A stretch of 64,000 nt of DNA from Amphiura filiformis (lineage: Eukaryota), in assembly GCF_039555335.1 (NCBI RefSeq), contig NC_092646.1:58074946-58138945 (forward strand). The letters run 5' to 3'. The notes beneath the pieces are model-generated. The model was not told the DNA's origin, made no database searches, and saw nothing but the letters and a program-made list of their open reading frames with translations. Position 1 is the first letter of the stretch; the number at the start of each line of letters is the position of its first letter. Below are positions 2,338 to 64,000 of this stretch, piece after piece. The translations under genes were made by a program, and so were the position numbers.

Positions 2338-3175
2338 GTTACGGTTCGCTATCTCTAAGGTTCGCTATCTCTAAGGTTCGTTATCACTAATTACGAAAAA
2401 GGTCCGCTATACCTAAGGTTCGATATCACTAATTTTGAAAAAGGTTCGGTATTTCTAAGGTTCGATATCACTAATTTTAAATAAGGTTCGCTATCTCTAA
2501 TTTTAAATAAGGTCCGCTATCACTAATTTATTGAAGGTTCGCTATCTCTAAGGTTAGCTATCACTAATTTAAAATAAGGTCCGCTATTCGCTATAGCGGT
2601 CCTTATTTAAAATTAGAGATAGCGGACCTTATTTGAAATTAGGGATAGCGGACCTTATTTAAAATTAGAGATAGTGGACCTTATTTAAGATTAGTGATAA
2701 CGAACTTTAGGTATAGCGAACCTTAATCGAAATTAGTGATAACGAACCTTAGATATAGCGAACCTTAATAAATTAGGGATAGCTTAACCTTTAACAAAAT
2801 TAGTAATAGCGAACCTTAGGTATAGCGGACCTTTATTGGAATTAGTGATAACTTGAACCTTAGAGATAGCGAACCTTCAATAAATTAGTGATAGCGGACC
2901 TTATTCAAAATTAGTAGCGAACCTTATTTTAAATTAGTGATAGCGAACCTTATTTAAGATTAGTGATATCGAACCTTAGAACTAGCGAACCTTATTCTAA
3001 ATTAGTGATATCGAACCTTAGAAGTAGCGGACCTTTTTTTAGGTATAGCGAACCTTTTTCTCTATTAGAGATAGCGGATTCTGATCTCCATAGACTTTAC
3101 ACGTTAGTGATAGCGAACCTTAGAGATAGCGAACCTTAGAGATAGCGGACCTTAGAGATAGCGGGATGTCACCCT
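2338..3175. repeat. Palindromic minisatellite with units of about 38-40 bp; the unit orientation flips at about 2597
   Basis: The left arm carries aaggttcgctatctctaa-type units. The right arm carries ttagagatagcgaacctt-type units. The symmetry centre is ccgctattcgctatagcggtcc. Confidence 0.85.
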
Positions 3176-6810: not shown

Positions 6811-7699
6811 AATAGTAAACAGCATACCCAAATAGTAAACTAATCTTAAAGGAGTATTTCGTGATCCTAGCATCCTCTTTTTATGACTTTTTTCAGTAGA
6901 TATCAACGAAAAAAGCCTATTCCCAAAATTTCAGTTGATTCTGATTTTGCATTTGCGAGTTATGCATGATTATGTGTATTACACTGCTCCATAGACAATG
7001 CGTTGTAATTTCGTTCTGGTGCACCAGAACGAAATTAAAATTTCACGATATCTTTGCTAAACGAATTAATCTGCAAGATATATTTTGTACATAAACATTA
7101 TGTAGCCAGAGGTATCCAGTAATATAAAAATCTCAACTTTTTTTTGGGAAAAGTGGGGGGATGAGGCTGTGGATCACGAAATGCCCTTTTAAGGGATCCC
7201 GGGAGAATACAGGAAGGGACATGATAAAGTGCAACATATCTTTTTATTTCAACAGAAGGGTTGTCAACATGTCCAGGGTTTTGTGGAAATGAGTCCCAAT
7301 TTATATATTTTTATTTACAATCTTTTCTCAAACGTGCCAATGAATGTGAGAAAGAGAGTGAATAATTGATACAAATTCTCCTTTCAGAAATATGGCTGGC
7401 TACAAAACAAAATGTGACATATTTGTTACAACCTGCAAAACAATTTGAAAATCAAAGGCATTCATTTTATTTTAATGATCTTCATAATGCCTTTGTTTTT
7501 ATGAAATATTTGATTAATTTAGTTAATTCCGCACTTGTCATTGATATTGTGAAAAGATATTCCAATTCCAAAAATATTGCAGCCACAGAAACTCAAAATA
7601 TTTGCTTATGGCGGCATTGATATTCATCAAATATCCACTTGGCGATAACTAATTAATTGAAAAGGCTATTGACATTCATTTTAAGTCTAAAAGAATATC

Positions 7700-10719: not shown

Positions 10720-11512
10720 CAGAAAACAAGCAACTCCCATTGTGGCCTGTACACCATCCGCGATAATGAAAAGCGTAAAATGGGTAGTTTTTAGGTAGGT
10801 AAGCATGATTCACAAGCGTAGCTTAGCGTTTATGGTGTCAAAAACATGAAATATTGGAAAAAGGGTAGCAAAATTGCAATTGCTAATACTGCGGAAATGA
10901 AATTTAGGGTATGAAATTTGATGCAAGGAATAAAATCCCTGTTTAGGGTGTAAAAACACCTGTTTAGGATATTGTTTTAGCCAAGGGTTAAATCCTTGTT
11001 TAGGGTGCTTTTCAAAAGTTGATTATCGTGAATTGGTGTACAGGCCACAATGGGAGTGACCCCCGGGAATTTCTACCCTGTTTTAGACCTTCTCTGCTGG
11101 AATTCTAACAAAATGTAAATGTTTCCAACTGGAATTGAGGTAGAAGTGCAAATCTTCCACAGGGTATCCGACTGAAAGTTAAATTTTCCACCGATAATGT
11201 TTCCAACTGGAATTGAAGTCGACATGAAAATCTTCCACAGGGTATCTGACTGGAATGAAGTTTTTAGTTAGAATTCCACACAAAACATGTAAATGTTTCC
11301 AACTGGAATTGAGGTCAAAATGCAAATCTTCCACAGGGTATCCAGCTGGAATTGCGTTAAATTTGTAAATCTTCTACATGATTCAGCTGGAATTACAATG
11401 AACGTGGGACTATTTCCAACGGATTGTACATTTGGCCCAACTGGAATTTAGGTAGCATTGTAAATCTTCCACAGGGGGGGTGTGGATTTCAAATGGAATA
11501 GCCCAATTGGAA
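10720..11512. repeat. Right arm of giant inverted repeat; mirror image of 605-1700
   Basis: 10720-11070 is the reverse complement of 1440-1700. 11090-11470 repeats the ccaactggaattgaggt..cttccacagggta subunits. It ends in the inverted terminus ggatttcaaatggaatagccc at 11480-11505. Confidence 0.6.
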
Positions 11513-12494: not shown

Positions 12495-12610
12495 TCAGCC
12501 CATCTTGACTGTCCTCAGGTCGTTCTGAGTAACCTCTGACATGGCTGCATCATTCTTCCAAGGAGCTGCAGTCCCAGGTAGACCAAACACTAGATTACAT
12601 CTTTTAAGGT
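12495..12610 (-). pseudogene. Intronic degenerate duplicate of the 3' half of the VIT exon at 13738-13943 (..LVFGLPGTAAPWKNDAAMSEVTQNDLRTVKMG*)
   Basis: About 32 residues are a paralogous copy of IVFGLPGSVAPWKKDTALSEVTQTDLKTVKIDKEMKG. It ends in a stop codon and has no GT donor. Confidence 0.55.
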
Positions 12611-12814
12611 CAGTTACCCCAAGACAGAGAAACAAAATAAAACACATCCAAAGTGTTATATTCCTTGCCACACTACTCAGCCATTGAAAACGGTCGAGAT
12701 TTATTTTTGTATATTCATCAAAAACATGCATACACAATTCACAATTTAATTAATATGAATAGCAAAGGCTAAAGGCTTCAATTCAGCAAAAACAATCATA
12801 AAATTATTCGGCAT

Positions 12815-13140
12815 TTATGCAAAAGCAAAAGTCTGGATGCGAGGTACTCCACGATATCGGAAAGCGAGATACTTTAAGCAAAAGCTGAAAAGCTGGATGT
12901 GAAATACCCCTTATATCTGAAAGCGAGATACTTTAAGCAAAAGCTGAAAAGCTGGATGTGAAATACCCCTATATCTGAAAGCGAGATACTTTAAGCAAAA
13001 ATGAAAAGCTGGAATGTGACTTACTCCAAGATATCGAAAAGCAAGGTACTTTAAGCAAAAGCTGAAAAGCTGGATGTGAGTTACACCATATAGCTGAAAG
13101 AGAGATACTTTGGAAGCAAATGAGAAAATTATAGCTGAAG
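12815..13140. repeat. Tandem repeat with a unit of about 60 bp, about 5 copies
   Basis: gcaaaagctgaaaagctggatgtgaaatacccc..tatctgaaagcgagatactttaa is repeated head to tail. Confidence 0.85.
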
Positions 13141-13737: not shown

Positions 13738-13943
13738 CCTTTCATTTCTTTGTCTATCTTGACTGTCTTCAGGTCTGTTTGAGTAACCTCTGATAGCGCT
13801 GTATCTTTCTTCCAAGGAGCAACACTGCCTGGTAGACCAAATACAATTGTATCTCCATCTACAGATAACTCTGCCATGTAAACTATCTTGATCACTACAG
13901 TTGTCATTGGGGGAAGGTTTCCTACACTCACTGTGAACACATC
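13738..13943 (-). CDS. PARP4: PARP4-like exon: central VIT domain (DVFTVSVGNLPPMTTVVIKIVYMAELSVDGDTIVFGLPGSVAPWKKDTALSEVTQTDLKTVKIDKEMK)
   Basis: Acceptor ttgcag|GATGTG and donor GG|gtaagc. The phases match both neighbouring exons. Confidence 0.85.
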
Positions 13944-13949
13944 CTGCAA

Positions 13950-14013
13950 GGAGATACAATACAGTTTTCTTTAGGGGAAGGTTACTTACACTCACTGTGT
14001 ACACATCCTGCAT
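13950..14013. repeat. Local duplicate of about 65 bp of the acceptor and first codons of the exon at 13738-13943
   Basis: ggaaggttacttacactcactgtgtacacatcctgcatag closely matches ggaaggtttcctacactcactgtgaacacatcctgcaag. Confidence 0.6.
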
Positions 14014-15027
14014 AGAGAAACAATTTCTGTGACTACCTCTGCGCTACATCCTTCACTGCACAAGATCCCCATTAGGCCCCCTTAATTAAATTTTGTGTCT
14101 CAAAGCTTGTCAGAAATTGGAAACCTAATGCGGAACACAATTTGTTTCTTCATCTATTTTTTATGTGTCAGTATAGGCTTTGGTACAAGCATTATGTCTG
14201 TTCCAAATATTTGAATAGTAGTCAAATAAAGTCACTGCTACAAAATAACCACATGAAAATACAGAATGATAATCTAAAACTTGAAATCAAATAGGAATTT
14301 TGGATTTTTATATTCACCTTTTGTTAAAAAAAGACAAAAAAATATGAATTTCTTGATTTTCAAAGAAGATTTTACTAACACGGTGCAGCAGCTTTGAGAC
14401 AGAGGTTTTTATTATCAGTGGTCTTAGACCTATAATAGGGTGGGATAAATACTAGGAAATTTACACAGCCCAAATAAAGGAATCCCTTCTCCTCAGGGGA
14501 TAAACAAGTAATCAAAAACAAAAGTAATCAAATGTCTGTGGCTATTATAGTGTATACGCTGATTTTCGCTGTGGTTTTATTTTCACAAATTTCGCAGATT
14601 AATATGTGCCCGCTAAAATAACAACCCGCGAGTATGTTAAAATGAAGAAATTTCTTATGTATATTATTATATAAGTTGCCAACAACCGTGAATTTAACAC
14701 CTCGTGAAATTGTCAGTGATACTTGAAACCGCAAAAATATCTGTAGCCGAAAATATTGGCCTATACACAGTACAGTAGTTGATGTACACACCCCACCCAC
14801 ACACTATTCAATCTGTTAGACAATTTAAAATGGAAACCTTTCATTTTACATGACAAGAGGCACACTTCACTTAATGATATCATATCGGTCCCTTGCCGGT
14901 GGTGCACGGAAACGAACAAAAACAATTCTGCATCTCATCTGAAGCACAATAGCCATCGTGTGCAGGACGTGTGAAATGCATCTCTCAAATGCTTCTAGTA
15001 TGCAATTTTGCACTCATATGACAAAGA

Positions 15028-15456: not shown

Positions 15457-15675
15457 TGGTGTTTCTTCATCCATAAGATAAGCTCCATGTCCCTTGCTGA
15501 TTGCTTCTTTGTATTCCTTGTGGGCTGTTTCTTTGTCTTTCACTTCCCCTATGATATGCTTGTCATTAATGAAGGCTTCAAATCCACACACTGCTGCCAT
15601 ATCATCCAGGGGGAACACATACTTAGCTTCTATCGGGTCATTGTTTTCATTGGTGTACACTTGGAAGACTACAAC
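15457..15675 (-). CDS. PARP4: PARP4-like exon: start of the VIT domain (VVVFQVYTNENNDPIEAKYVFPLDDMAAVCGFEAFINDKHIIGEVKDKETAHKEYKEAISKGHGAYLMDEETP)
   Basis: Acceptor cgttag|GTTGTAG and donor CCA|gtaagt. The VIT signature YVFPLDD..AAV.GFEAFIN is present. Confidence 0.9.
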
Positions 15676-15780
15676 CTAACGATGAAACAAACAATAATTA
15701 ATGAAAGGAAGAAAGGGATAAAATTAAAGGAAGAAGAGAATGTGAAAGAGCAGGAAGAAGATGTGAAATGAGATGAAAGG

Positions 15781-15963
15781 ACTAATGGGCTATTCCAGTT
15801 GAAATCCATACACCCCCTGTGGGAGACATCATAAACTCCCACACAGGGGGTGTAGATTTCAAATGGAATCCCCCATTCAGGTAACCCTATTAAAATTCAC
15901 ACTCCCCAACTGGAAGATTAAGGTCATAGTCTTCCATAGGGGGTGTATGGATTTCAACTGAAA
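15781..15963. mobile_element. MITE family A, full palindromic copy of about 185 bp
   Basis: TIR gggctattccagttgaaatccatacaccccc and its inverted counterpart gggggtgtatggatttcaactgaaatatccca. Confidence 0.8.
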
Positions 15964-17129
15964 TATCCCATAAGCAGTGTTGCCAAAACTTTTCAGCGTC
16001 AAGGCGCGGCGCATTGACTCGCCAGGCCGCGGTAAAGGAATCTCAAGTAGCCCAATTTTTTAAGCTTCCAAAAAAGCGCCCAATACCGGATATTTGGGCA
16101 GATTTACCCGAAGTTAGAACGCAAAACACCCAATTGGGTGGACAAGCACTTGACTTTTAAACTTCCGGTAATTACTAGGAAGTTACTGACCGATCAATAA
16201 CTTGTCACAAAACCCATTGTAATTGCAATTTGGAGCTTTAGAGACTCAAAACCTTTATAAATCGGCTAAACTGAAAGGAAAATACATCAAATTAGTGCCG
16301 CGGCCTGACACTGGCAAAAGTAGCCCAATTTTAGGCAAGTAGCAGCATGCTTTTTTGAGTAGCGGCAAGTGATCGCCAAGTAGCCCAATTGTGCGCCTAA
16401 GGACAGTTTTTGCAGTTTTGGGACACTTTGCCCTCTGACCTATTGGGAAAATTCAGAAAAATTGGTTTTTGTGTTTACAAAATATAATCTAAAATGTTTT
16501 ACAAGAATAAAATCAAACCCAAAAAATATTATTATTAAATAAATTAATTATTTAAATATTTTTAATGATATCATTATGAAAATAATAAATTAATTAATAC
16601 TAATTACAGCAATTTCTCGATATGTCAGAGGTCAAAGTGTCCCAAAACTGCTCTCAAAAACTGGAAGTTATAATGGCGATTGGGCTTATTGCTGGGTCAG
16701 TCAAGGAATGAATATCATTCAGTAATATTAAAATTAGAGATAATACTTTCATGTTAATGCTCTGTATGCCATAGACTTCAACGTAAAAATTCCCAGTTTT
16801 GAGATATTTTCTCAAAATATCAAGAGCTATCTTAAGAACCATAGATTTCAAAGTAAAAATTCCCAGGCATGACAATATACAATTCTTAAATTTTGAATTT
16901 TTAAATTTAAACAATTTTTGGAGTCGACACTCGCCATGAGAGAATTAAATAGAATTTATCAGCTTAATTTTGACACATAACATTTCAAAATTGATCAACG
17001 ATTTGATAACTGAAAATAAGTCATAAATTCTTTTTCTTTTTGTTCCTTATTTTGTCATGTATTATTTTTTCCATATCTTGAAAATCAGTGGGCTGCAAAA
17101 AAATTAAAGTACACCCATTTGATGTGATT

Positions 17130-17755
17130 GGTTACATACACTAAGCCAAAAAAGAAACTTATAATTTTTCACAAGGTCATATCTTAAAATCCTCTCCATA
17201 AAAATGAACAAAAATTGCACACAGGATTACTTCAATACTCTACTCTAAACACTGGTCAGTAACCAAACAGTTGTCCAACTGACACAACAGCAAAATACAC
17301 TGACATGCAACACCTTCCTGGACCACATTCACAGCGCAACAGATTTCTTTGGCTGGGTTCCAACAATTTTTAAGCCTGTACATGAACAAAAATTACACAC
17401 AGGATTACTTCAATACTCTATTCTAAACACATGTCAGTAACCAAGCAGTTGTCCAACTGTCACAACAGTAAAATACACTGACACGGAACAGCTTCCAGGA
17501 TCACATTCACAGGCGAATAATTGGAACCCAGCCAAAGAAATCTGTTGCGCTGTGAATGTGGTCCAGGAAGGTGTTCGTGTCAGTGCATTTTACTGTTGTG
17601 TCAGTTGGACAACTGCATAGTTAGTGACATGTGTTTAGAGTAGAGTATTGAGGCAATCCTGTGTGTAATTTTGGTTAATTTTGATAGACAGGATTTTAAG
17701 ATATGACCTTGTGAAAAATTATAAGTTTCTTTTTTGGCTTAGTGTGTTAATGAAT
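17130..17755. repeat. Foldback structure built from units of about 190 bp (two direct copies, then one inverted copy) with inverted flanks
   Basis: 17190-17345 is similar to 17375-17520. 17520-17680 is the reverse complement. The flanks ctaagccaaaaaagaaacttataatttttcacaaggtcatatcttaaaatc (17140) and gattttaagatatgaccttgtgaaaaattataagtttcttttttggcttag (17695) are inverted. The same unit recurs at 57150-57360. Confidence 0.7.
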
Positions 17756-17756
17756 G

Positions 17757-17942
17757 GCCTACTCCATTTGAAATCTATACACCCCTTTTGAAGACATACC
17801 TTAATCTTCAACACAGGGAGTCTGAATTTCCATTGGGCTTACGCGAATGGGTGACTCCATTTGAAATCTATCCTCCCTGTGTGGGAGATTACTGTCACGT
17901 CTTCCACAGAGGGTGTATGGATTTCAACTTGAATAGCCCAAT
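17757..17942. mobile_element. MITE family A copy; abuts the 135-bp tandem array
   Basis: ggcctactccatttgaaatctatacaccc ... gggtgtatggatttcaacttgaatagccca. Confidence 0.7.
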
Positions 17943-17949
17943 AACTCAC

Positions 17950-18485
17950 CTCTGCAGCCAAGTCCAGTAACTTAGCCCTGACATGGACAGCTTTCAGTGG
18001 TACTGGTTGGTCACTATTAGACAATAGACCAGCTTGGACTTTGGACAGTGGATCAGTAATGGACTGCACATCATTGATACTTACCTCTGCAGCCAAGTCC
18101 AGTAATTTAGCCCTGACATGGACAGCTTTCAGTGGTACTGGTTGGTCACTATTAGACAATAGACCAGCTTGGACTTTGGACAGTGGGTCAGTAATGGACT
18201 GCACATCATTGATACTTACCTCTGCAGCCAAGTCCAGTAACTTAGCCCTGACATGGACAGCTTTCAGTGGTACTGGTTGGTCACTATTAGACAATAGACC
18301 AGCTTGGACTTTGGACAGTGGATCAGTAATGGACTGCACATCATTGATACTTACCTCTGCAGCCAAGTCCAGTAATTTAGCCCTGACATGGACAGCTTTC
18401 AGTGGCACTGGTTGATCACTATTAGACAATAGACCAGCTTGGACTTTGGACAGTGGGTCAGTAATGGACTGCACATCATTCAGAT
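17950..18485 (-). repeat. PARP4: In-frame tandem array: 135-bp unit x about 4.7, made of the PARP4-like linker exon plus its GTAAGT donor; A and B variants alternate
   Basis: Period is 135 bp exactly (ctttcagtgg at 17991, 18126, 18261). The minus-strand ORF is open across all copies and reads (QSITDPLSKVQAGLLSNSDQPVPLKAVHVRAKLLDLAAEVSINDV)n. Each copy contains GCAGAG|GTAAGT; the last copy has GCAGAG|GTGAGT. Confidence 0.85.
18355..18485 (-). CDS. PARP4: PARP4-like linker exon (minimal, single-copy form): D-LNDVQSITDPLSKVQAGLLSNSDQPVPLKAVHVRAKLLDLAAE, ending at the first GTAAGT donor
   Basis: Acceptor aaatttcag|AT. Phase 1 pairs with the exon at 22558-22729, which ends in phase 1. The donor is in phase 0 and pairs with the acceptor at 15675. 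Donors at 18220, 18085 and 17950 are equally in-frame alternatives. Confidence 0.6.
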
Positions 18486-18540
18486 CTGAAATTTAATGTG
18501 GTTGAGATGTGTTACATTATTGTATGACTTTGACTGGAAA

Positions 18541-18640
18541 TTACACAGGGGGGTGTAGATTTCAAATGGAGTCACCTGTTCTGGTAAAATTCACACCCCC
18601 TGTGTAAGAGGGGGTAACTGGAAACTGTAGGATTTGAACT
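18541..18640. mobile_element. MITE family A internal fragment
   Basis: ggggtgtagatttcaaatggagtcacc...ttcacaccccctgtgt. Confidence 0.5.
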
Positions 18641-22889: not shown

Positions 22890-23083
22890 TTGACTTTTCT
22901 AGTTGAAATCCATACACCCCCTATGGAAGACATGACTTCAATCGCCCACACAGGGGGTATATATTTCAAATGGAGTTGCCCATTCAGGTAACCCAATTTG
23001 AAATTCACACAACCTGTCTGGACCATCAAAGCTCATGTCGTCCATATGGGGTATATGGATTTCAACTGGAATAGCCCATTGCA
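22890..23083. mobile_element. MITE family A full copy
   Basis: agttgaaatccatacaccccctatggaagacatgac ... ggggtatatggatttcaactggaatagccca. Confidence 0.8.
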
Positions 23084-23713
23084 TCATTCAATTTTAGTTC
23101 TACAAAGAAATACTAAACACAACAGGTCTTTACCATGGTTATCTTGTCAGACCCAAAAAAGCATTTTCTTACAAACTGAAGCATAGATATCTGTTTTTTG
23201 ACTTCATGATCCTTCCAGACCTTCAGTCACTTCCTTAAGGTACTTGTTGACATATCTAAATTACCTAAAATCTGAAGCATACAGCTCTGTTCCCTTGACT
23301 CCATGGACACTATAACATCCTTGCAGAGCTCTGTTAGTTCCTTGAGGTACTTTTTAACATCTTTACATTTCCTTATCTTGGAATCTGAAGCACACATGCA
23401 GCTCTATCTACTCCTTTGATTCCATGCACATTTGGACTATGACATCCTTTTGGAACTTAGTTCTGTAAGTTCCCGAAAAGTACTTATTGACATCTGGACA
23501 TTTTCTTTACCTCAACATCTGAATCATACATTATAATATCCTGATGGAGTTTCTGTCAGTGCCTTTACTATAGTACTTCTTAATATCTGGACACTGTCCG
23601 TAAATCAAAATCTGCAGCATACACCTCTATTCCTTTGGCTCCCACTATGATATCCTGATGGAACTTTTCTTAGTTCCTTAAGGTACTTTTTGGCAACTAT
23701 ACATTGTCCTTAC

Positions 23714-24198: not shown

Positions 24199-24365
24199 TT
24201 AGGGCTGTGCAATAATTATGAGCCCCCAGGGGTAAAATTTCCAAACAGCATGCCAAAAATTGTTCTAGAGACCCCAATTGAATTCTTATATATGACAATT
24301 ACTGAGCTTTTGATACTAATTGGGCTATTCCAGTTGAAACCCATACACCCCATATGGAAGACCTG
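24199..24365. mobile_element. Adjacent solo termini of MITE family B (24199-24260) and MITE family A (24318-24362)
   Basis: gggctgtgcaataattatgagccccc...aaaatttccaaac and gggctattccagttgaaacccatacacccc. Confidence 0.5.
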
Positions 24366-27530: not shown

Positions 27531-28047
27531 AGCCACCTGTCCACCCATCATTTTGGATGGGAAGTCTCTCATCTCGTATAGAAAGGCAAATGCCTTTCAC
27601 AAGGCTGACTTACATATAGCTGTTGTAATAGTTTATTGAACTTGAATTTTTATATAAGATCATGCTCTATGTGTTCAAATGTCTGCATGGATATGGACCA
27701 AATTATCTCATTGAATGAATTTCATTATACAACCAAACTCGTCTCGGCTTGCGTTCTGCAACAGACACTACACGTCTCTCTGTACCAAATTTCAACCCCA
27801 AAGGCCTGCAATCAGCTTTCGACAAGAGTTTTTTCTCTCACCGCACCTGCACTCTGGAACTCACTTCCATCTGAACTCCGTACTGCTGCTTCTCTGCCAA
27901 GTTTCAAGAAAGGTCTCAAAACCTTCCTGTTCCCACAATAATCTGGTGGTTTTGTTTCAGTTTGCTGTTTTATTTTGCCTTTCAAATATTTTTGTGTTCC
28001 ATCTTGGCGCCGTGGTCTTTATGAAATGGCGCCCTATAAATGCCTTG

Positions 28048-28159
28048 TAATGTAATGTAATGTAATGTAATGTAATGTAATGTAATGTAATGTAATGTAA
28101 TGTAATGTAATGTAATGTAATGTAATGTAATGTAATGTAATGTAATGTAATGTAATGTA
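28048..28159. repeat. (TAATG)n pentanucleotide microsatellite, about 22 units
   Basis: Perfect gtaat repeats; the translation is HYITL... Confidence 0.95.
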
Positions 28160-28230
28160 ACTTGAAGTAGATCAAAACTGTGATCTCTTATGGTAGTAAG
28201 CTGTACAATGGTGATAAATCTTCAACATAC

Positions 28231-32320: not shown

Positions 32321-32399
32321 ACATGAAGTTATATGAAGTTGTGATTTGTTGAAATGCATCTTGTGAAAGGACTGAAGATATATGGATTACCCTGCAGTA

Positions 32400-32770
32400 T
32401 ATTGGTGATCCAGTCCATCTGAATTATAACAGCTTCTTTGTCTTGGTCATGTGTCATGGTGACTTGGTCTTACCTTTCTGCATCTTGGTATACTGCTCTT
32501 CACCTTGGTTATTTTCCATGCCAACTTTATCTTACCTTTCTGTATCTTGGTGATCCAATCCATCTGGGTCAGAACACCTTCTTTATCTTGGTCATGTTCC
32601 ATGGTGAGTTTGTCTTACCCTTCTGCATTTTGGGTGGTCCAAAACATCTGGATAACTGCTCTTCACCTTGGTTATTTTCCTTGCAAACTTTGTCTTACCT
32701 TTCTGTATCTTGGTGTTCCTATCCATCTGGACAACATCTTCTTTGTCTTGGTCATGTTCCAAGGTGAGGA
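32400..32770. repeat. Tandem repeat with a unit of about 169 bp, about 2.2 copies
   Basis: ctcttcaccttggttattttcc recurs at 32488 and 32657. The three overlapping plus-strand ORFs are artefacts of the repeat. Confidence 0.8.
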
Positions 32771-33643: not shown

Positions 33644-33820
33644 AGGGCTATTTTAGTTGAAATCCATACACCCCCGTATGGAAGACATGACCTTAATCTC
33701 TTACACAGGGGTGTAGATTTTAAATGGAGTCACTCATTCAGGTAACCCCTCCTGTGTGGAAGATTAAGGTCATATTTTAATAGGGGGTGTATGGATTTCA
33801 ACTGGAATAGTCCATTCTAA
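33644..33820. mobile_element. MITE family A full copy
   Basis: gggctattttagttgaaatccatacaccccc ... gggggtgtatggatttcaactggaatagtcca. Confidence 0.8.
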
Positions 33821-34570: not shown

Positions 34571-34602
34571 ATTTAAGTCAATTTCAATAATTTAACAATG
34601 TG

Positions 34603-35160
34603 CTATTACAGTTGAAATCTATACACCCCATATGGAAGACATGAGCTAATCTCCCGCACAGGGAGTGTGAATTTCATACTCCCTGTGTGGGAGCTTAAAA
34701 AAAAAAAAAACAATTGTTTGTTTGTCCTCCACAGCTTTGAAAGAGGACGTGCGGGCAGGCGGATTTTTTTTGATTTTTTGATTTTTTTTTTCGGATTTGG
34801 CGTATTTCTGGACCTTGCTAGAGCTAAATGCTACAATCATTCATGGTGACTTAAAAAAAACAACATTTTGTTTCTTTAATATGCAGTTAAAGTTATAATT
34901 TGTGTTCATGTCATAGTCTTTTAATGATTTGGTGGACTTTTTTTAATTTTCAACCATGAAAGAGGTCCAGAGATACTCCAAATCTGGAAAAAAATTGAAT
35001 TTTACTTATTTTTATTTTTAAAAAAAAATAGAAAAAAAAAATATTGGTCAGGCCTTCATCTGAGGAGCGGGCAGTGGAGGACAAACAAACAACTTTTTTT
35101 TTTTTTTTTTGGCCTTAAGGTCATGTCTTCCATAGGGGTGTATGGATTTCAACAGCAATA
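34603..35160. mobile_element. MITE-A copy interrupted by a nested palindromic insertion of about 410 bp (34700-35108)
   Basis: Left terminus at 34603-34700 and right terminus at 35108-35160. The insert carries inverted ends: gttgtttgtttgtcctccacagctttgaaagagg at 34717 and its reverse complement at 35045-35095. Poly-A and poly-T tracts flank the insert. Confidence 0.6.
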
Positions 35161-35477
35161 CACCAATGCACATCATAAGTTATCTAGAGATGCCCATAGG
35201 TATAACTCTCTCAATGCCACTGCAGACGACAAGATTCCAATATTTTTTTTAATTTCAAAAATTTCAGAATTGTATATTCTCATGACCATATTTAGAACCA
35301 GCATGAAAAGAGTATAAACAAGCCTAGTATTGGTTCATAGCTCTTGATATTTTGAGAACATATCTTAAACTTTTTTTATGTTGAAGCCTATGGCTAGCAT
35401 GCAGAACATTAAAATCACATCAAAAATTGACATTTTAAACAAGTGCATAAATACCTGTAGAAGACTACATTTGGCCA

Positions 35478-36112
35478 ATTCATAGCATTCATCTGGGTAT
35501 GCTGGTGCCTGGTCTGATCCCAAAGGATACACTCTGAAAACAATCAGTCAAAATAAAATAGTAAAAATCAGAAAAAACATATGCCAAACTGTCACCTTCC
35601 TAAGGCACCCAGGCAAATTCATAGCATTCATCTGGGTATGCTGGTGCCTGGTCTGACCCCAAAGGATACACTCTGAAAACAATCAGTCAAAATAAAATAG
35701 TAAAAATCAGAAAAAACATATGCCAAACTGTCACCTTCCTAAGGCACCCAGTCTAATTCATAGCATTCATCTGGGTATGCTGGTGCCTGGTCTGATCCCA
35801 AAGGATACACTCTGAAAACAATCAGTCAAAATAAAATAGTAAAAATCAGAAAAAACATATGCCAAACTGTCACCTTCCTAAGGCACCCAGTCTAATTCAT
35901 AGCATTCATCTGGGTATGCTGGTGCCTGGTCTGATCCCAAAGGATACACTCTGAAAACAATCAGTCAAAATAAAATAGTAAAAATCAGAAAAAACATATG
36001 CCAAACTGTCACCTTCCTAAGGCACCCAGTCTAATTCATAGCATTCATCTGGGTATGCTGGTGCCTGGTCTGATCCCAAAGGATACACCCTAAAAACAAT
36101 CAGTCGCTATTT
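35478..36112. repeat. Tandem repeat with a 139-bp unit x about 4.6
   Basis: ttcatagcattcatctgggtatgctggtgcctggtctga recurs at 35478, 35618, 35757, 35896 and 36035. Confidence 0.9.
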
Positions 36113-36379: not shown

Positions 36380-36760
36380 TGGAAACACTGTATGAGGTAT
36401 GATCGTTTTCGCCCACCTGGATATTTACCCACAATGCACTATTACACTCTGTTCTGAATGATCAATATCACTTACTGGGCTATTCTAGTTGAAATCCATA
36501 CACCCGCTATGGAAGACATGACCTTAATCTCCCACACAGGGAGTGTAGATATCAAATGGAGTCACTCCTTCAGGAAACTCCATTTGAAATTTAAACTCCC
36601 TATGTGTGAGATTAAGATCATGTCTTCCATAGGGGGTGTATGGATTTCAACTGGAATAGCCCAACAAGTGATATTGATCATTCAGAACAGAGTGTAATAG
36701 TGCATTGTGGGTAAACATCCAGGTGGGCAAAAAAGATCATACCTCATACAGTGTTTCTGC
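36380..36760. repeat. Extended palindrome: a MITE-A copy (36476-36662) flanked by roughly 95-bp inverted repeats
   Basis: gaaacactgtatgaggtatgatcgttttcgcccacctggatatttacccacaatgcactattacactctgttctgaatgatcaatatcactt (36385-36476) is the reverse complement of 36665-36758. Confidence 0.75.
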
Positions 36761-37782
36761 TTCTTCTTCCTAAATAAGCGCTGCTGTACCTCAATTTGGT
36801 GTAATGAGGTGATGCATCATGGCAAAGGATTCTGGGAAGGGAAATATCTTCGCATTAGTCATCTCTCTTTAGGGCTCATATTGAAATTCCCTTACACAGG
36901 AAGGTGTGCGCCATCCTGCAGCTTTCCTGTGCTAGCCTTCTTTTGTTAAAATCCTGTGTGATTATAACACTGCAATTAGCCACTTAAATTAGGAGCGCGC
37001 TTTCCTGGGTTGTGCGATGAGCCGATTAGTTCAATTAGCTCAACAATCAATAAAATTGCTAGTCTTTGATAAACTTTTATTATAATCCTTGGGTGTATCA
37101 CTGATGCATATATAATCCATCCGTTTTATGACCGAGCTTTCCTGAGGCGCGCGCTTAGCGAGGGGAATCCTGCCTTCTTTCAGTGTGAAAGCGTGGTAGG
37201 GTATTTCAATATGAGCCCTTAGCCCATTCAATGAACTGTTATATAAAAATAATGATAATTACCGTACTAACTTGAGTATAGTCCCAATGCATTTTGATAT
37301 CATTAATAGAATATGACATGTAAACAAACTATCAATTTTCATATTAAAACACAAAACTTTGTGCAAAATTCAATTTTTTTTTTTTTTTTTTACCTTGAAT
37401 GATCCTAGCATTTATGTTCTATGTTCTGGGACACTACAAAACCGAAAAAAATAAATAACTTAAAAAATTTTTTTTTTTTTTTTAATTTCTGAAATTTTTC
37501 GAAAGTTTGGGGTGGGACTATACTCGAAGGTGGGACTATATACTCGCGTCAGTACGGTAATATAAAATTTCCAAACAATTTGGAAGGCTAACCTTATCTT
37601 GTTGATATTAAAGGAGCTCACTTTACTTGTCTTTGGTTTTTCTTGGGGATGACTTGGTCCTGAGTTTTAAAAGAATAAAAATACAACAACAAAATGTTAT
37701 AAGTAATTGCAGGTTGACATATTAATGAAAATCTTCAAAACTCAGTTGTGACTATCTTGCCTGAGCAAAACTCTTGATGTAC

Positions 37783-37907
37783 ACAGGGGGTGTGAATTTT
37801 AAATGGGGTTTACCTGTATGGGTGATTCCATTTGATATCTACACCCCCTGTGTGGGATATTAAGATCATGTCTTCCATAGGGGGTACATGGATTTCAACT
37901 GGAATCA
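37783..37907. mobile_element. MITE-A partial copy (right half)
   Basis: acacagggggtgtgaattttaaatgg...gggtacatggatttcaactggaatcat. Confidence 0.6.
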
Positions 37908-37909
37908 TA

Positions 37910-38100
37910 AGTGAGAGCATGCTGGTCTGATGGTTAGAGCATTTGACTTATGATTAAAAGGTTGTGGGTTCGAGCCCAATGTCCTTGGGCAAAACACTTC
38001 TCACTTGTCCCACTCCATCCAGTTGTAAAATGGGGAGCTGTTAAAGATTGTTCAGCTTATAAACATCTACTTAACTTCACTGTTGAGACACACATAAAAA
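37910..38100 (+). mobile_element. tRNA-derived SINE, same superfamily as the SINE at 33095
   Basis: Head: gagcatgctggtctgatggttagagc...gtgggttcgagccca. Body: cttgtcccactccatccagttgtaaaatggggagctgttaaag. Confidence 0.6.
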
Positions 38101-38394
38101 GTAATACAAAACTCACCTGTGACAATCTTCCCTAAGCTAAACTTTGTCCCACAGATAATGTATAGCTCAGTATTCTCTTGGTCTGGGTTGTTAAATCTAT
38201 TGTACTTACCCATTTCTCACATCTGTCAAAGGGGACACCCTTGCAAAATCCCTATTGGTTTGTTCAGGGCCTTTCACGTCAGAAGGCACGAGATGCAGCA
38301 GCCAAATCCTGGAAAAAACAACCATTGCAATGAAGCGATCTATTTCGAGTGACGTCATTACCGGCTGACCGACCAAATACAGCTTATCTTCACT

Positions 38395-38765
38395 GAGACA
38401 CAAATCAATGAAACCAAACTCACCTGTGACAATCTTCCCTGAGCTAAACTCCTGTGTCATAGACATCCCACAGACAATGTGTGGCTCTGTATCTACTAGC
38501 TTTTCTTCACTGAGACACACATTAATGAAACCAAACTCACCTGTGACAATCTTCCCTGAGCTAAACTCCTGTGTCATAGATGTCCCACAGACAATGTGTG
38601 CCTCTGTATCTACCAGCTTATCTTCATCGACACACATCAATGAAACCAAACTCACCTGTGACAATCTTCCCTGAGCTAAACTCCTGTGTCATAGACGTCC
38701 CACAGACAATGTGTGGCTCTGTATCTACCAGCTTATCTTCACTGAGACAAACATCAATGAAGTCC
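38395..38765. repeat. Tandem repeat with a unit of about 116 bp x about 3.1, derived from the SINE tail region
   Basis: aaactcacctgtgacaatcttccctgagctaaactcctgtgtcatag recurs at 38418, 38535 and 38650. An ancestral single copy sits at 38105-38170. Both strands have open frames across the repeat. Confidence 0.8.
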
Positions 38766-39170: not shown

Positions 39171-39176
39171 AAAATG

Positions 39177-39437
39177 GCTATTCCAGTTGAAATCCATACA
39201 CCCCCTATGGAAGACACGTAATCTCCATTTCAAATGGAGTCACTCATTCAGGTAATCCCATTTAAAGATCACAATCCCTGTGTGGAAGATTATGGTCATG
39301 TCTTCCATAGGGGGGGAGTGTGAATTTCAAATGGGGTTACCTGAATGGGTGACTCCATTTGAAATTCACACTCTCTGTGTGGAAGATTAAGGTCATATAT
39401 TCCATAGGGGTGTATGGAATTCTACGGGAATATCCCA
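39177..39437. mobile_element. MITE-A, about 1.5 rearranged copies
   Basis: ggctattccagttgaaatccatacaccccctatggaagac ... ggaattctacgggaatatccca. Confidence 0.7.
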
Positions 39438-41150: not shown

Positions 41151-44100
41151 ATAAGGGGTACTACACCCCTGCCCAATTTTGTGCCTATTTTTGCATTTTG
41201 CTCAAAAAATTATAGCGCATTGGGGACAAGTAAGATATGTAGTAGGCAAGGACTACAACCACTGCACTGGAAATTTTATTTCAGCACAGACAACAGTTGT
41301 GGAGTTACAGACAAAAATGAGGGAAGGGAGATCAAATCACTTTATTATCAAAATACATATAAAACCATTGAACAATAAAGGAAAACAATAAGCCCAGGAC
41401 AGATCGTATAAAAGATCATGCAGGGCGGACAAATACAGTATAAAAGCATGTAAGCACAAGAAATAGCAATATTGAAAGACATAAAAAGATATAAGATTTC
41501 ATTATTTATCACATTATGCACTGAGCATAGTAAATGACAAAAGAGGCAATGATGGACAATTTGGAAACCTTGTCGCGAATTCCTTGAAACAAATCGGGAG
41601 TGAACTAAAGAAGTGAATGATTTGAGCCTGTCAGCATTATCTTGCGAAATGAAACCTCTCGAGCCAACTTCAACACCTAATGTAAGTAACCTCGAAATCA
41701 TTTTCCTGAATATCAGAAATAAGAGGCGATACTTATTGAGCTTCAACTGATGGGCCCTGTCAATACCATGCTCAAAGGAACGGTCAGTTCCACAATCAAT
41801 AGTTTCCTTCGATTCTTCCAAAGAATTACCAGATCAGGTTTGAGGTTGGTTGGAGAACATTCAGTAGGAATGGTAGTGACACCGGCAAAACCAGCTTCAC
41901 CTGGAATGTCATGAAAATGGTTGCATCCGAATCTTTGAGGCCAGCTCGTATGCGACAGATATAAAATATTTCAGAACACTATTATGACGGTAAGTATAAC
42001 GACCTTGGTCCAGAAAGACTTTACAGTTATTTAGAACATGATTGAGAGTCTCTTTGTTGCAGCAATGTAAACATTTGTTGGAAACAGATTTACCCCACCT
42101 AGCAAGGTTGACCCTTGTGTTCAGAGAGTCGCCAAGGGCGTTAACCAAAAATTTGCTGACTCTCGAAGGAAGATTGAAAATGATGCTACGCCAGAGAGTG
42201 CAGGAAGATTCTTTGGAAAGGAGATCATAAAAACGTCCTTGCACTGCAAGAGAACGAACATGATTATGCCAAAATTCAGAAATTGAATGGGTCAACGTTT
42301 TCTTGGCGGAATTCTTCTGAATGGTAACCTTGTTTGACTTTTCCCCAACTGCTTAAAATATTTCTTCACTCCTGACAGTCACTGATTTCTTCCGAGTCCA
42401 TTTTCGCTCTCTATCCAATTTGGAATCAATGCAGTGGCTAACAAGCTCATCACTTTTATTTCTAATTGAAATATGTGTCATCACATGACTCTCAAGATAG
42501 AGATCAGAAATGGATCGAATATTGAGCCCATTAGGCATGAAAATAAAGGCAAGGGTGCCGGGTTTTGGAATACCAAACCATTTTTTCAAATGACGATTGC
42601 ACATAGCGCCCAGCGCTTGGAGATGAGAAAAGCAGAGATCATTGACTGTCAAATGGTAGCGTAAAGAGGGAAGAAAGTATCTTGTGTAAACTTGAATCTT
42701 ATATTCATTTGAATAACAGAAGTTTCGATATTTTCCAGGGCGGAAGAAATTTTGTCCTTGAGGTATTCAAAATATCCGAGGAATTGTTGCGAAAAGTAAT
42801 GAGGGAACCAAGAAATTTGTGAGAATCATTTTCAACGGTTGGGACCTCAACGCCTGCAATGTCGAAAAGAATGGAAGTGGGGAGCCTGCAGAAAGGGATA
42901 ACGATCTGCATTTGGAAGGCTTTAATTTGAGACCCATTGAAGAACAATGGTCGGTGATGCGGTTAATGAAACGTTGATGGGTTTTCTTATGTCTTGTGAT
43001 CAGGCAAAAATCATCAGCAAATGGGGTGGTGATGAATTTGGTACCACTGAGATCGTAACCAAAATTGGAATTGGCGATGAGGTCTTGAACAATAGGATCA
43101 AAGCAGAAGATAAAAATTAACCGTGAAAGAGTGTCTCCCTAGAAAATACCTTTCTTAAACTGAAATTGATTCAAGTCCAGTCCTTTGAGGAAACTCTACC
43201 AGTGAGAGATGAATAAAGATTGTTAATGTACAGTTGAATACAGGGAGGGAAATTTAATCTCTTCAGAGTGTGATAGATAAGCTCATGTTGAACACTACCG
43301 AAGGCGTCTTCTAAGTCAAACCAGGTAGCATGAACAGTCTTAGAGTTAGCTTTAGCATGACTTAAAATTTCATGGACAATTGTATTATGATCAGTACAAC
43401 CACTAATGCCTTTCAAGAAAGCTTTTTGAAACAAGTATAATGTCAATAAGATTGTTAGAAATAACAAATTTCTCAAATCTTTCGGCAAGCACTTGGTGAT
43501 AGAGTTTTCCAATAACGCTGACAAGAGCAATCATGCGGAAATTAGATGGATTGTCAGTATCACCTTTTTTGTGGATCAGCACAATTTTACTTGATGTCCA
43601 TGATGATGGTGGAGATGGAAAATGTAACAGTTTGCTAAAAAGAGTTGCCATAAAATGATGCGTACAGGGAAGTTTCTTAATCATCCCATACATTAGGCCG
43701 TCCGGACCGGGCAGATTTAGAACTTTTTTCATAACAATTTTTCTTATGTCGGATGGTCTGACTGGGTCTAAATTGAAATTGAATAAAGTCTCTGGCTCGG
43801 TAACAGGTGGAAACCAATTCATTTCGTCATAGTTGAGTGGCGTTAGACAATTCATAGCGATCTGTATAGAACTGGTCAGCTGATTCTTTAGAAAATGATG
43901 GCCAGTTACTATCACCATAGAGTGACCCGTTGACTAGTCTTTTAGCAAAGTCCCAGAAGTTTGATTTAAAATGTCTCTCCTCCCGGGCACAAGTTCTTTC
44001 AGAATCCTTAGCTTTTTCTTGTTTACGAAGAGTATCATATGTGTGAAGGGCGTCATAAAATAGTTTTTATCATCAGCAGTGGCATTTTTTCTGAAAGCCT

Positions 44101-50599: not shown

Positions 50600-53550
50600 A
50601 CTGCCTATATAATTCGTTGTCACGGATTGCTATGAAGTATAAACCGATACCCAGTGCCGTGTGTTGCTATTCATCGAGTATCGAGTTTCGAGTTTCGAGT
50701 TTGAGTTTCGAGTTCGAGTTTCGAGTTTCGAGTTACAAATTTCGAGTTTCGAGTTTCGAGTTCGAGTATCGAGTTTCGAGTTCGAGTTTCGAGTTTCGAG
50801 TTACAAATTTCGAGTTTCGAGTTACTAATTTCGAGTTTCGAGTTAGGTTTTTCGAGTTTCGAGTTAAGAATTTCGAGTTTCGAGTTAAGAATTTCGAGTT
50901 TCGAGTTAGAATTTTCGAGTTTCGAGTTAAGATTTTCGAGTTTCGAGTTAGGATTTTCGAGTTAGGTTTTCAGAGGTTTTTAGTAAAAATGTAATAAAAT
51001 CAGAAACTAGTTGAACATTATAAACAATGTTAAACGAACACGGAAAGTAGAACGGTAGTATTCAAAATAATACACACTAGACTTGGCGAAATAATAAAAG
51101 TCTTATTCGGTGTAACTTTTATGAGATAAATTTGACAGAATGTTAAAAGACAATTTAGCGCAGAGCTACGAGAAACCAAGGAAGTGCCAATATTTAAGGG
51201 AAAACATGCATGGATCTTATAAATTTTGTGATGTACGACGAGTAGGCCCTATATTAATTAAATAATCATTTAAGGTGGTACTACACCTCTGACAAATTTT
51301 GTGACTAATTATTTATCTATTTATTTCTTATTTAACCTGGGGTAACCAATCAATGCACTGGCACTTTTCTCCCCTGGTTCCCAATTTTGCAGTGTTCTCA
51401 AAAAATAACTACACATTGGTAACAAAAGTTATGTATATTATAGGGGCAAGAAATTCCACTAGGCCCTACTTCACTGGAATTTCAGTGATTTAAAACAAGT
51501 CGTTCATTAGAAGAAATGAGGTACATTCTAGTAGTACATCTTTATCTTATAGTGGTACCTCTTTTCTTCTTATATATAACGTACCCTTGAGTCACTGAAA
51601 TTCCAGTGTAGAAACTGGATTCCTTGCCCCTATAATACACATAACATTTTGTTACCAGTGTGTTATTATTATTTTTTTGACAAAAATGCAAAAAATAGTC
51701 CAAAATTTATCAAGGGGTGTAGTACCCCCTTAAAGTTACATATTTTAATTTTTTAAATTGACCTAAATACTTAATAATTGTAAATTTAAACTTATGATCT
51801 CAACACAAAATTAAGACGTACCTCAAATACTGGTGATATATATTCATATATATTTAGTGAAGTATGTCAAACATCGATCGGATGAATTGATATTTCGGTC
51901 GAAAATTATATAATTCCTCGAATGTCAAGTGAGTGTTGAATTGAGCCTTCACCCAAACGCCCTCGCTGGTTTTTGGCGAGGGGGAAGGAAAGAAGGCAGG
52001 AAGAAAAAAAGAAGAAGAGGATAAAACTTTTTTCTCGGGTGCGGTTTCGAACCACCGACCCCTCGGGCGCCAGACATTGCTACGGGGTGTAGCTTTGTCG
52101 ACCAAGCTTTCCGTGACCATATGACTGTTCGCATGATGACACAATCACATCACGTGGGATACCTGCCTGTGCCTATGCTTTGTGAACTGTGGTTTTGTGA
52201 TGTTTGGTACGGTTATTTCACGTTTAAATGTTGAATTTAGTAGTAATGATGTTTCATCCATAATTTTCAATTTCAAATGAACAAAATATGACTCTTCTTG
52301 CAATCCGTTGACTTAAATCAGAATGTAATGAGATTTTATGAAAAATATTTTACTTCCCAACGTCTATACGTGATATGGGAAAATAAATACCTCTCTTCTG
52401 GGAAATAATAACTTAACTCGATATTTTGACATTTTCGAGTTATAACTCGAAAATGTCAAAATATCGAGTTAAGTTATTATGTCTCTGAAGAGAGGTACTT
52501 GTTTCCCCAGATCACGTATAGACGTAGGGAAGTAAAATACTCTTAATGAAACCTCATTTACCTAATAAGAGTCAAAGGATAGCAAGAGGAGTTACATTTG
52601 CCCCAGATCACGTATAGTCGTTGGTAAGCAAAATACTCTTAAAGCCAAAATGTACGATTAACCAATTTCATATTATAAGATCGTACATTATGGCTTTAAT
52701 AATTCTCATTTACATTATGATTTGAACTCGATATTTTGACTTGTCAAAAATATCGAGTTAGGTTTGTTATCAATCCTAGTGCCAAGATATTTATATGAAG
52801 ACACTCGCTCCACCTTACTACCCTTCACGACTATAGGGCTTGAATATAACTCTTATTATAAGTAAAAATATAATGTCATTTGATGAAGGCACAATTCAAC
52901 ACTAACACTTAATTGATATTCGAGGAATATTTGTATATTTTTGACCGAATTATCAATTCATCCGATCGATGTTTGACATACTTCACCAAATATAGCCACA
53001 AGCATTTAGGTAAATTCAAAAAATCAGAATATGTAACTTTAAATGATTTTTAAAACAATATACTCGTCGTATATACCACAAAATTTCATTTATAAGATCC
53101 ATGCATTTTCCCCTTAAATATTGGCACTTCCTTGGTTTCTTGTAGCTCTGCACTAATTTGTGTTTTAACATTCCGTCAATTTTATCTCATAAAAGTTAAA
53201 ACCGAATAAGACTTTTGATATTTCGCCAAGTCTAGCGTGTATTATTTTGAATACTACCGTTCTACTTTCCGTTCAACTATTGTTTGTAATTTTATTTATT
53301 AAACTCGAAAATTCGAACTCGAAACTCGAAATTCTTAACTCGAAACTCGAAATTCTTAACTCGAAACTCGAAATTTGTAACTCGAAACTCGAAATTTGTA
53401 ACTCCAAACTCGAAATTTGTAACTCGAAACTCGAAATTGTAACTCGAAACTCGAACTCGAAACTCGATACTCGAAACTCGAAACTCGATACTCGAAACTC
53501 GAAACTCGAAACTCGATGAATAGCAACACACCCCAGTGCCTATAGGGTAA
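50600..53550. mobile_element. Foldback-like element about 2.95 kb long; its long inverted termini are made of a tcgagtt(t)cgag minisatellite
   Basis: The left arm, 50617-51260, is the reverse complement of the right arm, 53040-53545. The tandem (tcgagtttcgagtt)n at 50672-50975 is mirrored by (ctcgaaactcgaa)n at 53290-53520. The outer ends ccagtgccgtgtgttgctattcatcgag and ctcgatgaatagcaacacaccccagtgcc match in inverted orientation. The interior holds further nested palindromes centred near 52440. Confidence 0.8.
51276..51735. mobile_element. Intact palindromic copy of MITE family C, nested in the left half of the foldback element
   Basis: ggtggtactacacctctgacaaattttgtgactaatt at 51276. The inverted end caaggggtgtagtaccccctt at 51712. 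Confidence 0.65.
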
Positions 53551-63389: not shown

Positions 63390-64000
63390 AAATTAGTTCT
63401 CGCTAAAGTGGTCTTTCCCACCAAATTTCATAAACCTGCAACAATCTATGGCGATTTGACCCCGAATGACCCCAAAATGATCTTGACATTTTTGGTCTTG
63501 CATCAGTGGTCGATCCCACCAAGTTTTATGAACCTGTAATAATCTATGGCGATTTGACCCGGATGACCCCGAATAACCCCAAAATGACCTTGACAATTTT
63601 TGACTTTCTCATTTTGGTCTCGTATCTGTGGTCGATGGCGCCAAATTTCATAAACCTGCAATAATCTATGGCAATTTGACCTCGGATGATCCCAAAATAA
63701 CCTGGAATTTTTCGTCTCGCATCTGTAGTCGATCGCACCAAATTTCATGAACCTGAAATAATCTATGGCAATTTGACACCGAATGACACTGGATGACCCC
63801 AAAATAACCTTGGCATTTGTCTCACATCAGTGGCCAATGCCTAAATTTCATGAACCTGTGACAATCTATAGCAATTTGACTAAGGATGACCCCAAAATGA
63901 CCTTGGCATTTGTCTCGCATCAGTGGTCAATGCCACCAAATTTCATGAACCTGTGACAATCTATAGCAATTTGACTAAGGATGACCCCAAAATGACCTTG
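63390..64000. repeat. Satellite array with units of about 95-122 bp, at least 6 copies, running off the window end; same superfamily as 54540
   Basis: The unit ccaccaaatttcatgaacctg.aataatctatggc.atttgacc..gatgaccccaaaatgacctt recurs at 63443, 63541, 63663, 63770, 63864 and 63959. Confidence 0.85.

Follow-up and report, generated by a model that had tools for sequence, protein, structure and literature searches.

The 64,000-nucleotide stretch of DNA analysed here (contig NC_092646.1, positions 58,074,946 to 58,138,945; hereafter "the window") carries on its minus strand a PARP4-like gene, and we describe a tandem array of 135-bp units at one exon-intron boundary of this gene, in which the end of a coding exon is repeated together with its 5' splice site (donor). 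Comparisons with relatives by tblastn and tblastx give 16 exons from 40542 to 11727, which encode, in order, the BRCT, PARP regulatory, PARP catalytic and VIT domains and the start of a vWA domain; the remainder of the gene, including its C-terminal part, lies beyond the window. (The BRCT exon ends in phase 1 and the exon at 35533 needs phase-2 entry, so at least one unmapped exon must lie between 38380 and 36105.) The gene had been called PARP4-like in an original prediction made from the letters of the sequence, and this identification is borne out: the stitched 473-amino acid product matches Pfam PARP, VIT and VIT_2, and more weakly VWA, and its best named match is Desmophyllum pertusum PARP4, with 64% identity over 100% of the query. 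In shared columns the window protein is 67–68% identical to coral PARP4, 47–57% identical to the snail, oyster, Trichoplax and vertebrate proteins (47–50% for the vertebrates), and 56–61% identical to those of tunicates, the latter over shorter alignments; going by these identities, the host would probably be cnidarian-like. Its closest relative is L001, an ENA metagenome contig; the exons of the two are 83% identical, with 0.077 nonsynonymous (dN) and 0.54–0.84 synonymous (dS) substitutions per site, values from which the gene is judged to be functional and under purifying selection.

The program Tandem Repeats Finder (TRF) reports a single array at 17944–18480, with a period of 135 bp, 4.0 copies, 97% matches, no indels and a score of 1025. 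Extraction of the individual units (U1 to U4, in the direction of transcription) places their minus-strand starts at 18480, 18345, 18210 and 18075 and the end of the array at 17941. The period of exactly 135 bp is thus as first reported; the copy number of 4.7 is not, and since there are four donors the gene could encode at most one to four copies of the unit, not one to five. The unit had been described as the exon plus 9 bp of intron. The 9-nucleotide intron tail is indeed present, but the exon part comprises 126 of the 131 exon nucleotides (AATGATGTGCAG...GCTGCAGAG), with the first five (ATCTG) outside the repeat, so that the repeated segment is exon nucleotides 6–131 plus intron nucleotides 1–9. 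All three internal junctions read GAG/GTAAGTATC/AATGATG (here and below, / marks a boundary). Units U1–U3 end in GAG/GTAAGTATC, whereas U4 ends in GAG/GTGAGTTAT, beyond which the sequence is unique; a consensus donor is therefore found in every unit, as claimed, but the tail of the last one differs from the others at four of its nine positions. The four donors all fit GAG/GTRAGT and all lie in phase 0, after complete codons.

The sense frame is open across the array, as had been noted (open reading frame (ORF) 17839–18474 on the minus strand, 211 amino acids), and the 45 encoded residues are alike in all four units except for the last residue of U4. Four exonic sites vary among the units: U2 and U4 are identical over their 126 nucleotides, U1 and U3 differ at two sites, and the two alternating types of unit, A and B, differ at two. 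In a self-BLAST the identity is 98.9% at an offset of 270 bp and 97.8% at an offset of 135 bp. This higher identity at the longer offset, the ABAB pattern and the identity of U2 and U4 indicate a recent duplication of an AB dimer, in agreement with the 270-bp event originally proposed.

The authentic exon is entered in phase 1 through the acceptor ttcag/ (18486–18487) and ends in phase 0; its product, (D)LNDVQSITDPLSKVQAGLLSNSDQPVPLKAVHVRAKLLDLAAE, consists of the PARP-VIT linker and the first strand of VIT. Since U1 follows directly upon this acceptor and exon nucleotides 1–5, the authentic copy stands at the edge of the array and the other three are intronic. The 45 encoded residues had been regarded as a module, a description that does not hold up. 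The Pfam VIT domain starts about 29 residues into the unit, and an AlphaFold2 model (38 sequences; mean predicted local distance difference test score 74.6, above 87 over the unit region, with block means of 87–94) has short helices and strands at 75–78, 86–96 and 99–109, with the exon junction E101/V102 inside the 86–96/99–109 hairpin. On this model, and because VIT begins inside the unit and the junction lies inside a hairpin, the unit is taken to be a linker plus the first VIT strand and no self-contained module; in a protein made by reading through the array, copies 1–3 would carry strands without a partner.

Table. Coordinates of the 135-bp array, its splice sites, other junction-spanning repeats of the gene and MITE (miniature inverted-repeat transposable element) copies in the window
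Feature	Position	Strand	Details and evidence
Tandem array, 4.0 x 135 bp	17941-18480	minus	TRF, unit extraction, pairwise differences, self-BLAST
Unit U1	18346-18480	minus	
Unit U2	18211-18345	minus	
Unit U3	18076-18210	minus	
Unit U4	17941-18075	minus	
Authentic exon, 131 nt	18355-18485	minus	translation; tblastn/tblastx to orthologues; Pfam VIT starts inside
Donor D1, GAG/GTAAGTAT	18353-18354	minus	exon-contiguous, predicted functional 5' splice site; sequence, junction compared with orthologues
Donor D2	18218-18219	minus	9-mer same as D1; predicted silent pseudo-site; if used, +45 in-frame residues
Donor D3	18083-18084	minus	9-mer same as D1; predicted silent pseudo-site
Donor D4, GAG/GTGAGTTAT	17948-17949	minus	last copy; MITE 10 nt further on
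Next exon, VIT core (VVVFQVYTNENNDPIEAKYVFPLDD...DEETP)	15457-15675	minus	acceptor gttag/ (AG 15676-15677), donor CCA/GTAAGT
Palindromic MITE copy, ~190 bp, adjoining the array	17753-17939	.	starts at intron +11 after D4; BLAST against window, comparison of termini
Donor-side array, BRCT exon end + GTGAGTTTGG, 117 bp x 3.3	38380-38761	minus	donors 38656, 38541, 38424
Acceptor-side array, 139 bp x 4.5	35473-36105	minus	exon confirmed by match at L002 7813-7890
Donor-side array, end of exon 32860-32699 + GTAAGA	32387-32768	minus	4-5 reiterations, 73-80% identity
Donor-side array, 3' end of PARP catalytic exon 23897-23714 + donor	23170-23713	minus	~5 degenerate copies (71-79%)
Acceptor-side duplication, 64 bp x 2	13893-14024	minus	decoy acceptor 14007, 64 nt upstream of exon start 13943
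Dispersed pseudo-exon, degenerate copy of 3' part of exon 13943-13734	12501-12638	minus	in next intron, 1.25 kb downstream
MITE copies	17753-17939, 15783-15971, 22894-23080, 33645-33817, 36472-36667, 39176-39437		
MITE fragments	603-648, 11465-11507, 18543-18605, 24319-24365, 34597-34676, 35115-35167, 37781-37905		

We think it probable that we are dealing here with a young minisatellite, of the type called a "mirage" in amphioxus, in which D1 is the donor used, U2–U4 are intronic decoys, and the protein keeps a single copy of the repeated segment. Two earlier statements are upheld: all of the donors are in phase with the next exon, whose acceptor is at 15675, and use of the first donor gives the canonical single-copy architecture. 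D1 joined to 15675 yields LLDLAAE/VVVFQ, the sequence found in the orthologues, with a predicted mRNA junction of ...GCAGAG/GTTGTAGTC; if D1 is used the intron is 2.7 kb long and has U2–U4 at its start. Each of U2–U4 is preceded by GTAAGTATC, with no polypyrimidine tract and no usable AG, the sole AG lying in a purine-rich context (gtaagtatcaatgatgtgcag). A tandem exon duplication, in which the copies serve as cassette or mutually exclusive exons, resembles the array in that exon sequence is repeated in tandem within a gene; it was considered and rejected, since U2–U4 have a donor but no usable acceptor and so cannot be separate exons.

The course of events would be as follows. The segment of exon nucleotides 6–131 and intron nucleotides 1–9 was presumably first duplicated in tandem, probably by slippage or unequal exchange, and the resulting AB dimer was then duplicated, leaving four donors of identical strength in a row. 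The spliceosome would pick D1 (18354), the donor that adjoins the exon and is the first to be transcribed, so that U2–U4 would be removed as the beginning of the 2.7-kb intron, would probably be neutral, and the protein would have its normal single copy.

The orthologous loci bear on this in several ways. The four orthologues that we inspected (from a coral, an unnamed transcript, a snail and a mammal-like sequence) have one copy each, reading ...DPLTKVEAGLKGTGDKPIPLQSVHIRARLLDLAAQ/VIVFQAYKN..., and the locus is also single-copy in L004, which is more distantly related and whose gene is compact, and in L006 (a coral). The peptide of the unit is 98% identical in L001, which has an array of its own at the orthologous donor (7269–7549, 69/70 bp x 4). 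Its first spacing is 69 bp, copy 2 has the changes P to L, K to R and H to Y, and in copies 3 and 4 a +1 insertion shifts the frame into a stop. In L003 (NCBI JAAUXV010171228.1; peptide 94% identical) a 193-bp duplication comprises the whole exon and 62 nucleotides of intron; its second copy is interrupted by an in-frame TAA and lacks an AG acceptor ahead of it, and read-through of donor 1 runs into a stop. The window, L001 and L003 thus have three different duplications of one exon end and its donor, and, because the extra copies are frameshifted or have stops, donor 1 is predicted to be the only one that can yield a functional protein in the latter two. The comparison of orthologous loci that the original prediction had proposed tells, indirectly, against the use of several donors that it had envisaged: these two relatives have their own duplications at the same donor, but the extra copies there are disabled, and the inspected annotated orthologues are single-copy. 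A search with a four-unit protein gave two matches, both single-copy relatives, and no database protein with more than one unit. No transcript or other assembly of the window species was found by exact look-up of the ORF, and a DNA pattern scan of metagenome contigs returned only L003.

The intron itself is old, since it is present at the same position in the coral L006 and in relatives that look molluscan by sequence, in which the ORFs of the VIT exon start with ..FQ/VVVLQ after a cag acceptor; the duplication added decoys to an existing intron. Recent intron gain through the duplication was rejected as an explanation, given the intron at the AxE/Q/VVV position in those molluscan-looking relatives and the coral. 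In a further, large set of relatives (P0001–P0028, for example L002 10001–10420) the unit exon and the VIT exon are fused in one genomic ORF, apparently through loss of the ancient phase-0 intron at AAE/VVV. No exon-derived repeats were found in the coral intron: its best local score was 17, while shuffled sequences averaged 16 and reached 26.

The 135-bp array is not alone. TRF and self-BLAST over the window located five sister arrays at other exon-intron junctions of the same gene, three of them at donors and two at acceptors (Table), and in all five the intact copy is the one contiguous with the exon. The extra copies are disabled in the donor-side arrays whose frame can be read (the BRCT 117-bp array and those of L001 and L003) and in both acceptor-side arrays. 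In the BRCT array, which has older copies at about 38070–38173, copy 2 has a 2-nucleotide deletion, and a hand count from the translation gives about five nonsynonymous to two synonymous changes; on account of these changes the array is taken to be decaying neutrally, with donor 1 alone viable. The 139-bp unit consists of 62 nucleotides of intron ending in ttgttttcag/, the first 57 nucleotides of exon 35533–35455 and 20 nucleotides unlike the authentic exon; an in-frame TAG interrupts the upstream copies, and the real exon is formed by the last one. In the 64-bp duplication the decoy acceptor at 14007 would, if used, shift the frame, and for both acceptor-side arrays an open frame is obtained solely from the exon-contiguous last acceptor. 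(Between exon 13943–13734 and its dispersed pseudo-exon at 12501–12638 there is in addition a 59-bp x 5 array, 12814–13128.) The 135-bp array, with 0–3% divergence, is most likely the youngest of the series and has not yet acquired disabling mutations, which would explain why U2–U4 are still intact.

In some in vitro studies of duplicated strong donors, the site closest to the 3' splice site was preferred. If this applied here, D4, the donor nearest the acceptor, would be used constitutively and the protein would always have four copies, and the frame is in fact open through D4. Applied to the 117-bp array, or to L001 and L003, however, the same rule would be lethal, as the downstream copies there have frameshifts or stops, and yet the gene is under purifying selection; the exon would reach 536 nucleotides, and the orthologues are single-copy. 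The early donor-duplication experiments are themselves conflicting (PMC1557585). Taken together, constitutive use of D4 strikes us as hardly credible.

Human minisatellites whose first monomer lies across an exon-intron boundary offer closer precedents; they are known in F7 IVS7 (37 bp), LMNB2 (100 bp), PDGF intron 4 (81 bp), IFI6/6-16 and CBS IVS13 (PMC1557585). Like the window array, they have an authentic donor followed by identical intronic 5' pseudo-sites. In F7, LMNB2 and PDGF only the most upstream, authentic donor is used, and fifty F7 constructs showed 5'-to-3' scanning, in which downstream pseudo-sites compete only when they match the consensus perfectly (PMC1557585). Large monomers thus go with use of the most upstream donor alone, and the pseudo-sites work once the first has been inactivated. 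The F7 monomer differs in having only 4 nucleotides of exon, whereas 126 of the 135 nucleotides here are coding and read-through is in frame; and in IFI6 and CBS the next two sites are used as well, so the outcome in the window array is not certain.

Several points weigh against exclusive use of D1. D2 and D3 are the same as D1 and match U1 RNA nearly perfectly (AGGTAAGTAT), and in the F7 study pseudo-sites of perfect consensus could capture some of the splicing (PMC1557585); IFI6 and CBS, as just said, splice also at the next two pseudo-sites (PMC1557585). The period is a multiple of three, and each of the four variable exonic sites is a synonymous transition at a third codon position (P = 0.023 under neutrality), as one would expect of translated copies. 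The splice-site rules invoked are, moreover, drawn from mammals and amphioxus, and the host probably belongs to another lineage. The original prediction had gone further and proposed that choice among the phase-0 donors gives PARP4 proteins with a variable number of modules, now one to four copies of the linker/strand segment, and hence a PARP-VIT hinge of variable length. That all four donors are strong and in phase with an open frame, that the inter-unit differences are synonymous at four of four sites, that the first two pseudo-sites are used in the IFI6 and CBS minisatellites, and that three of the four young donor-side arrays have periods divisible by three (135, 117 and 69, but not 193) would all be expected if this were so. 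The last of these, however, is not significant (3/4, P about 0.11; the array at the PARP exon, with a period of 110–114, is too degraded to be scored for frame bias). As for the synonymous differences, comparison with L001 and L003 as outgroups places derived states in U1 (site b in U1 only, site d in U1 and U3), and selection on U1, which is surely translated, or import or conversion of allelic synonymous variants, followed by the dimer duplication, suffices to account for them. The unit is only part of a domain, so extra copies would add unpaired beta-strands; no inspected orthologue or database protein has more than one copy; older arrays of the same kind decay neutrally; and the precedents with large monomers use the first donor only (PMC1557585). 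Variation in copy number through choice of donor is a less likely reading than use of D1, and we regard it as unlikely. Leaky in-frame use of D2–D4 is possible, by analogy with the human cases.

Tandem repeats of 97–100% identity are error-prone in assemblies, Ebner et al. report a mis-assembled mirage in the amphioxus draft genome (PMC3087553), and a second assembly of the species was not found, so the array or its copy number might be an artefact of expansion or collapse. Against this, the ordered ABAB variants and two sites private to U1 argue for distinct, real copies, and the novel junction GTAAGTATC/AATGATG must be present in the reads. Two related genomes, assembled independently, have comparable arrays at this exon, and the same gene has the five further arrays described above. 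We consider an artefact very improbable.

The amphioxus mirages are the structures that the array most resembles. They have been described in Adh3, TnC, the globins and PGBD5, at 5' or 3' boundaries and with units of 10–160 bp; their copy number varies between haplotypes, no aberrant mRNAs were seen, and their origin was called unclear (PMC3087553, PMC3902484). They share with the window arrays head-to-tail units (tens to about 160 bp) that lie across an exon-intron boundary and reiterate its splice signal, occurrence at both 5' and 3' boundaries, several arrays per gene, and an authentic copy at the array edge. Mirages are further marked by high identity that suggests concerted evolution, by less homogenised boundary units and by a structure that differs between haplotypes or species; the window arrays may share these traits, as the ABAB pattern and the other periods at the same exon in relatives would suggest. 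In structure the array is thus a mirage or junction-spanning minisatellite. There are also differences. In these accounts mirages are described only for cephalochordates, and the window host is probably not one, its protein being nearest to coral PARP4 (67–68%); normal splicing was shown in amphioxus by reverse transcription-PCR, whereas the window array is known from genomic sequence. Nor do the amphioxus accounts (PMC3087553, PMC3902484) have a counterpart of six arrays in one gene, or of arrays that arose independently at the same three exons of two species. The Rogers model, in which introns are gained or slide through duplication of a segment containing AG/GT (discussed in PMC3087553), is similar in that a duplication is spliced out and the coding sequence is kept, but the window intron is old and the duplication creates no intron.

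Of the eight tandem arrays between 11727 and 38857, six lie across a junction, against an expectation of 0.92 (P = 4e-5); counting 13 arrays over 1–38857 gives P = 3e-4. Three exons that bear arrays in the window, namely the PARP, unit and DVFTV exons, also bear them in L001, with other periods and breakpoints, and the chance of the same three of eight shared exons being hit in the window and L001 is 1/56. Junction duplications in the relatives lie at L001 7269–7549, 11165–11582 and 2720–2937 and at L003 1017–1400, and their extra copies have frameshifts or stops. With a dS of at least 0.5 between the window species and L001, the arrays, all of 71% identity or more, must by this measure be younger than the split between the two. 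Self-healing by splicing accounts for the tolerance of junction-spanning as opposed to intra-exonic duplications, but not for their excess over purely intronic ones. That excess, and the repeated hits on the same exons, might come from a duplication process that favours exons (for example through small circular DNA that derives from exons and reintegrates, or through breaks coupled to transcription and splicing), from minisatellite loci that persist through turnover, or from selection for splice sites in several copies. A bolder proposal combines these with the intact array: an active junction-biased duplication in a non-chordate, probably cnidarian, lineage, coupled to exons or splice sites or favoured by selection for reiterated splice sites, with leaky downstream donors of the 135-bp array producing extra-linker PARP4 isoforms. 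We put this forward tentatively, as a possibility that is rather doubtful as a whole. An apparent conservation of the donor motif in the decoys (93.9% against 86.0% elsewhere, P = 0.009) was discarded, because local alignments drop mismatched ends and the difference vanishes once clipped alignment ends are counted as mismatches. No further genes were found in the window for comparison on a genome-wide footing, only retrotransposon fragments at 41–44 kb and 58–59 kb.

Several other elements lie in the window. A family of palindromic MITEs of about 190 bp (GGGCTATTCCAGTTGAAATCC ... GGATTTCAACTGGAATAGCCC) is spread through the introns (Table). The copy next to the 135-bp array was considered as a cause of the duplication and rejected; the other five arrays have no adjoining MITE, and the adjacency is put down to coincidence. 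Just past the array, in the same intron, about 500 bp with a 178-bp direct repeat (17204–17512) and mirror-image ORFs are enclosed by a perfect inverted repeat of 46 bp (17138–17183 and 17700–17745), and the segment 17138–17745 is a candidate foldback element. A perfect (TGTAA)23 microsatellite occupies 28046–28160, in the intron after the PARP regulatory exon. Upstream of the gene, reverse-transcriptase-like ORFs, judged by eye, at 41348–43918 and 58203–59056 are putative remnants of retrotransposons without long terminal repeats (non-LTR), and no other host genes were recognised in the 40–64 kb part of the window. Two arrays of 7-bp repeats in opposite orientation, TCGAGTT x 42 (50674–50963) and AAACTCG x 31 (53301–53516), are separated by about 2.3 kb and may be the termini of a mobile element. 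Satellite-like arrays are found at 2343–3163 (16-, 26- and 42-bp units in two inverted halves) and at 54629–58072 and 63791–64000 (95–129-bp units rich in GACCTCAGATGACCCC).

Taken alone, the 135-bp array is an ordinary and probably silent junction minisatellite, with one practical consequence for annotation, namely that gene predictors may call a four-copy PARP4. The clustering of such arrays at the junctions of this gene is the more interesting result. Six boundary arrays of differing age, on both donor and acceptor sides and recurring in relatives, form a natural series for the study of how the spliceosome chooses among identical sites. The same series bears on what generates mirages, through which, it has been suggested, introns may be gained or may slide, and if the host lineage is non-chordate the phenomenon would not be restricted to the cephalochordates.

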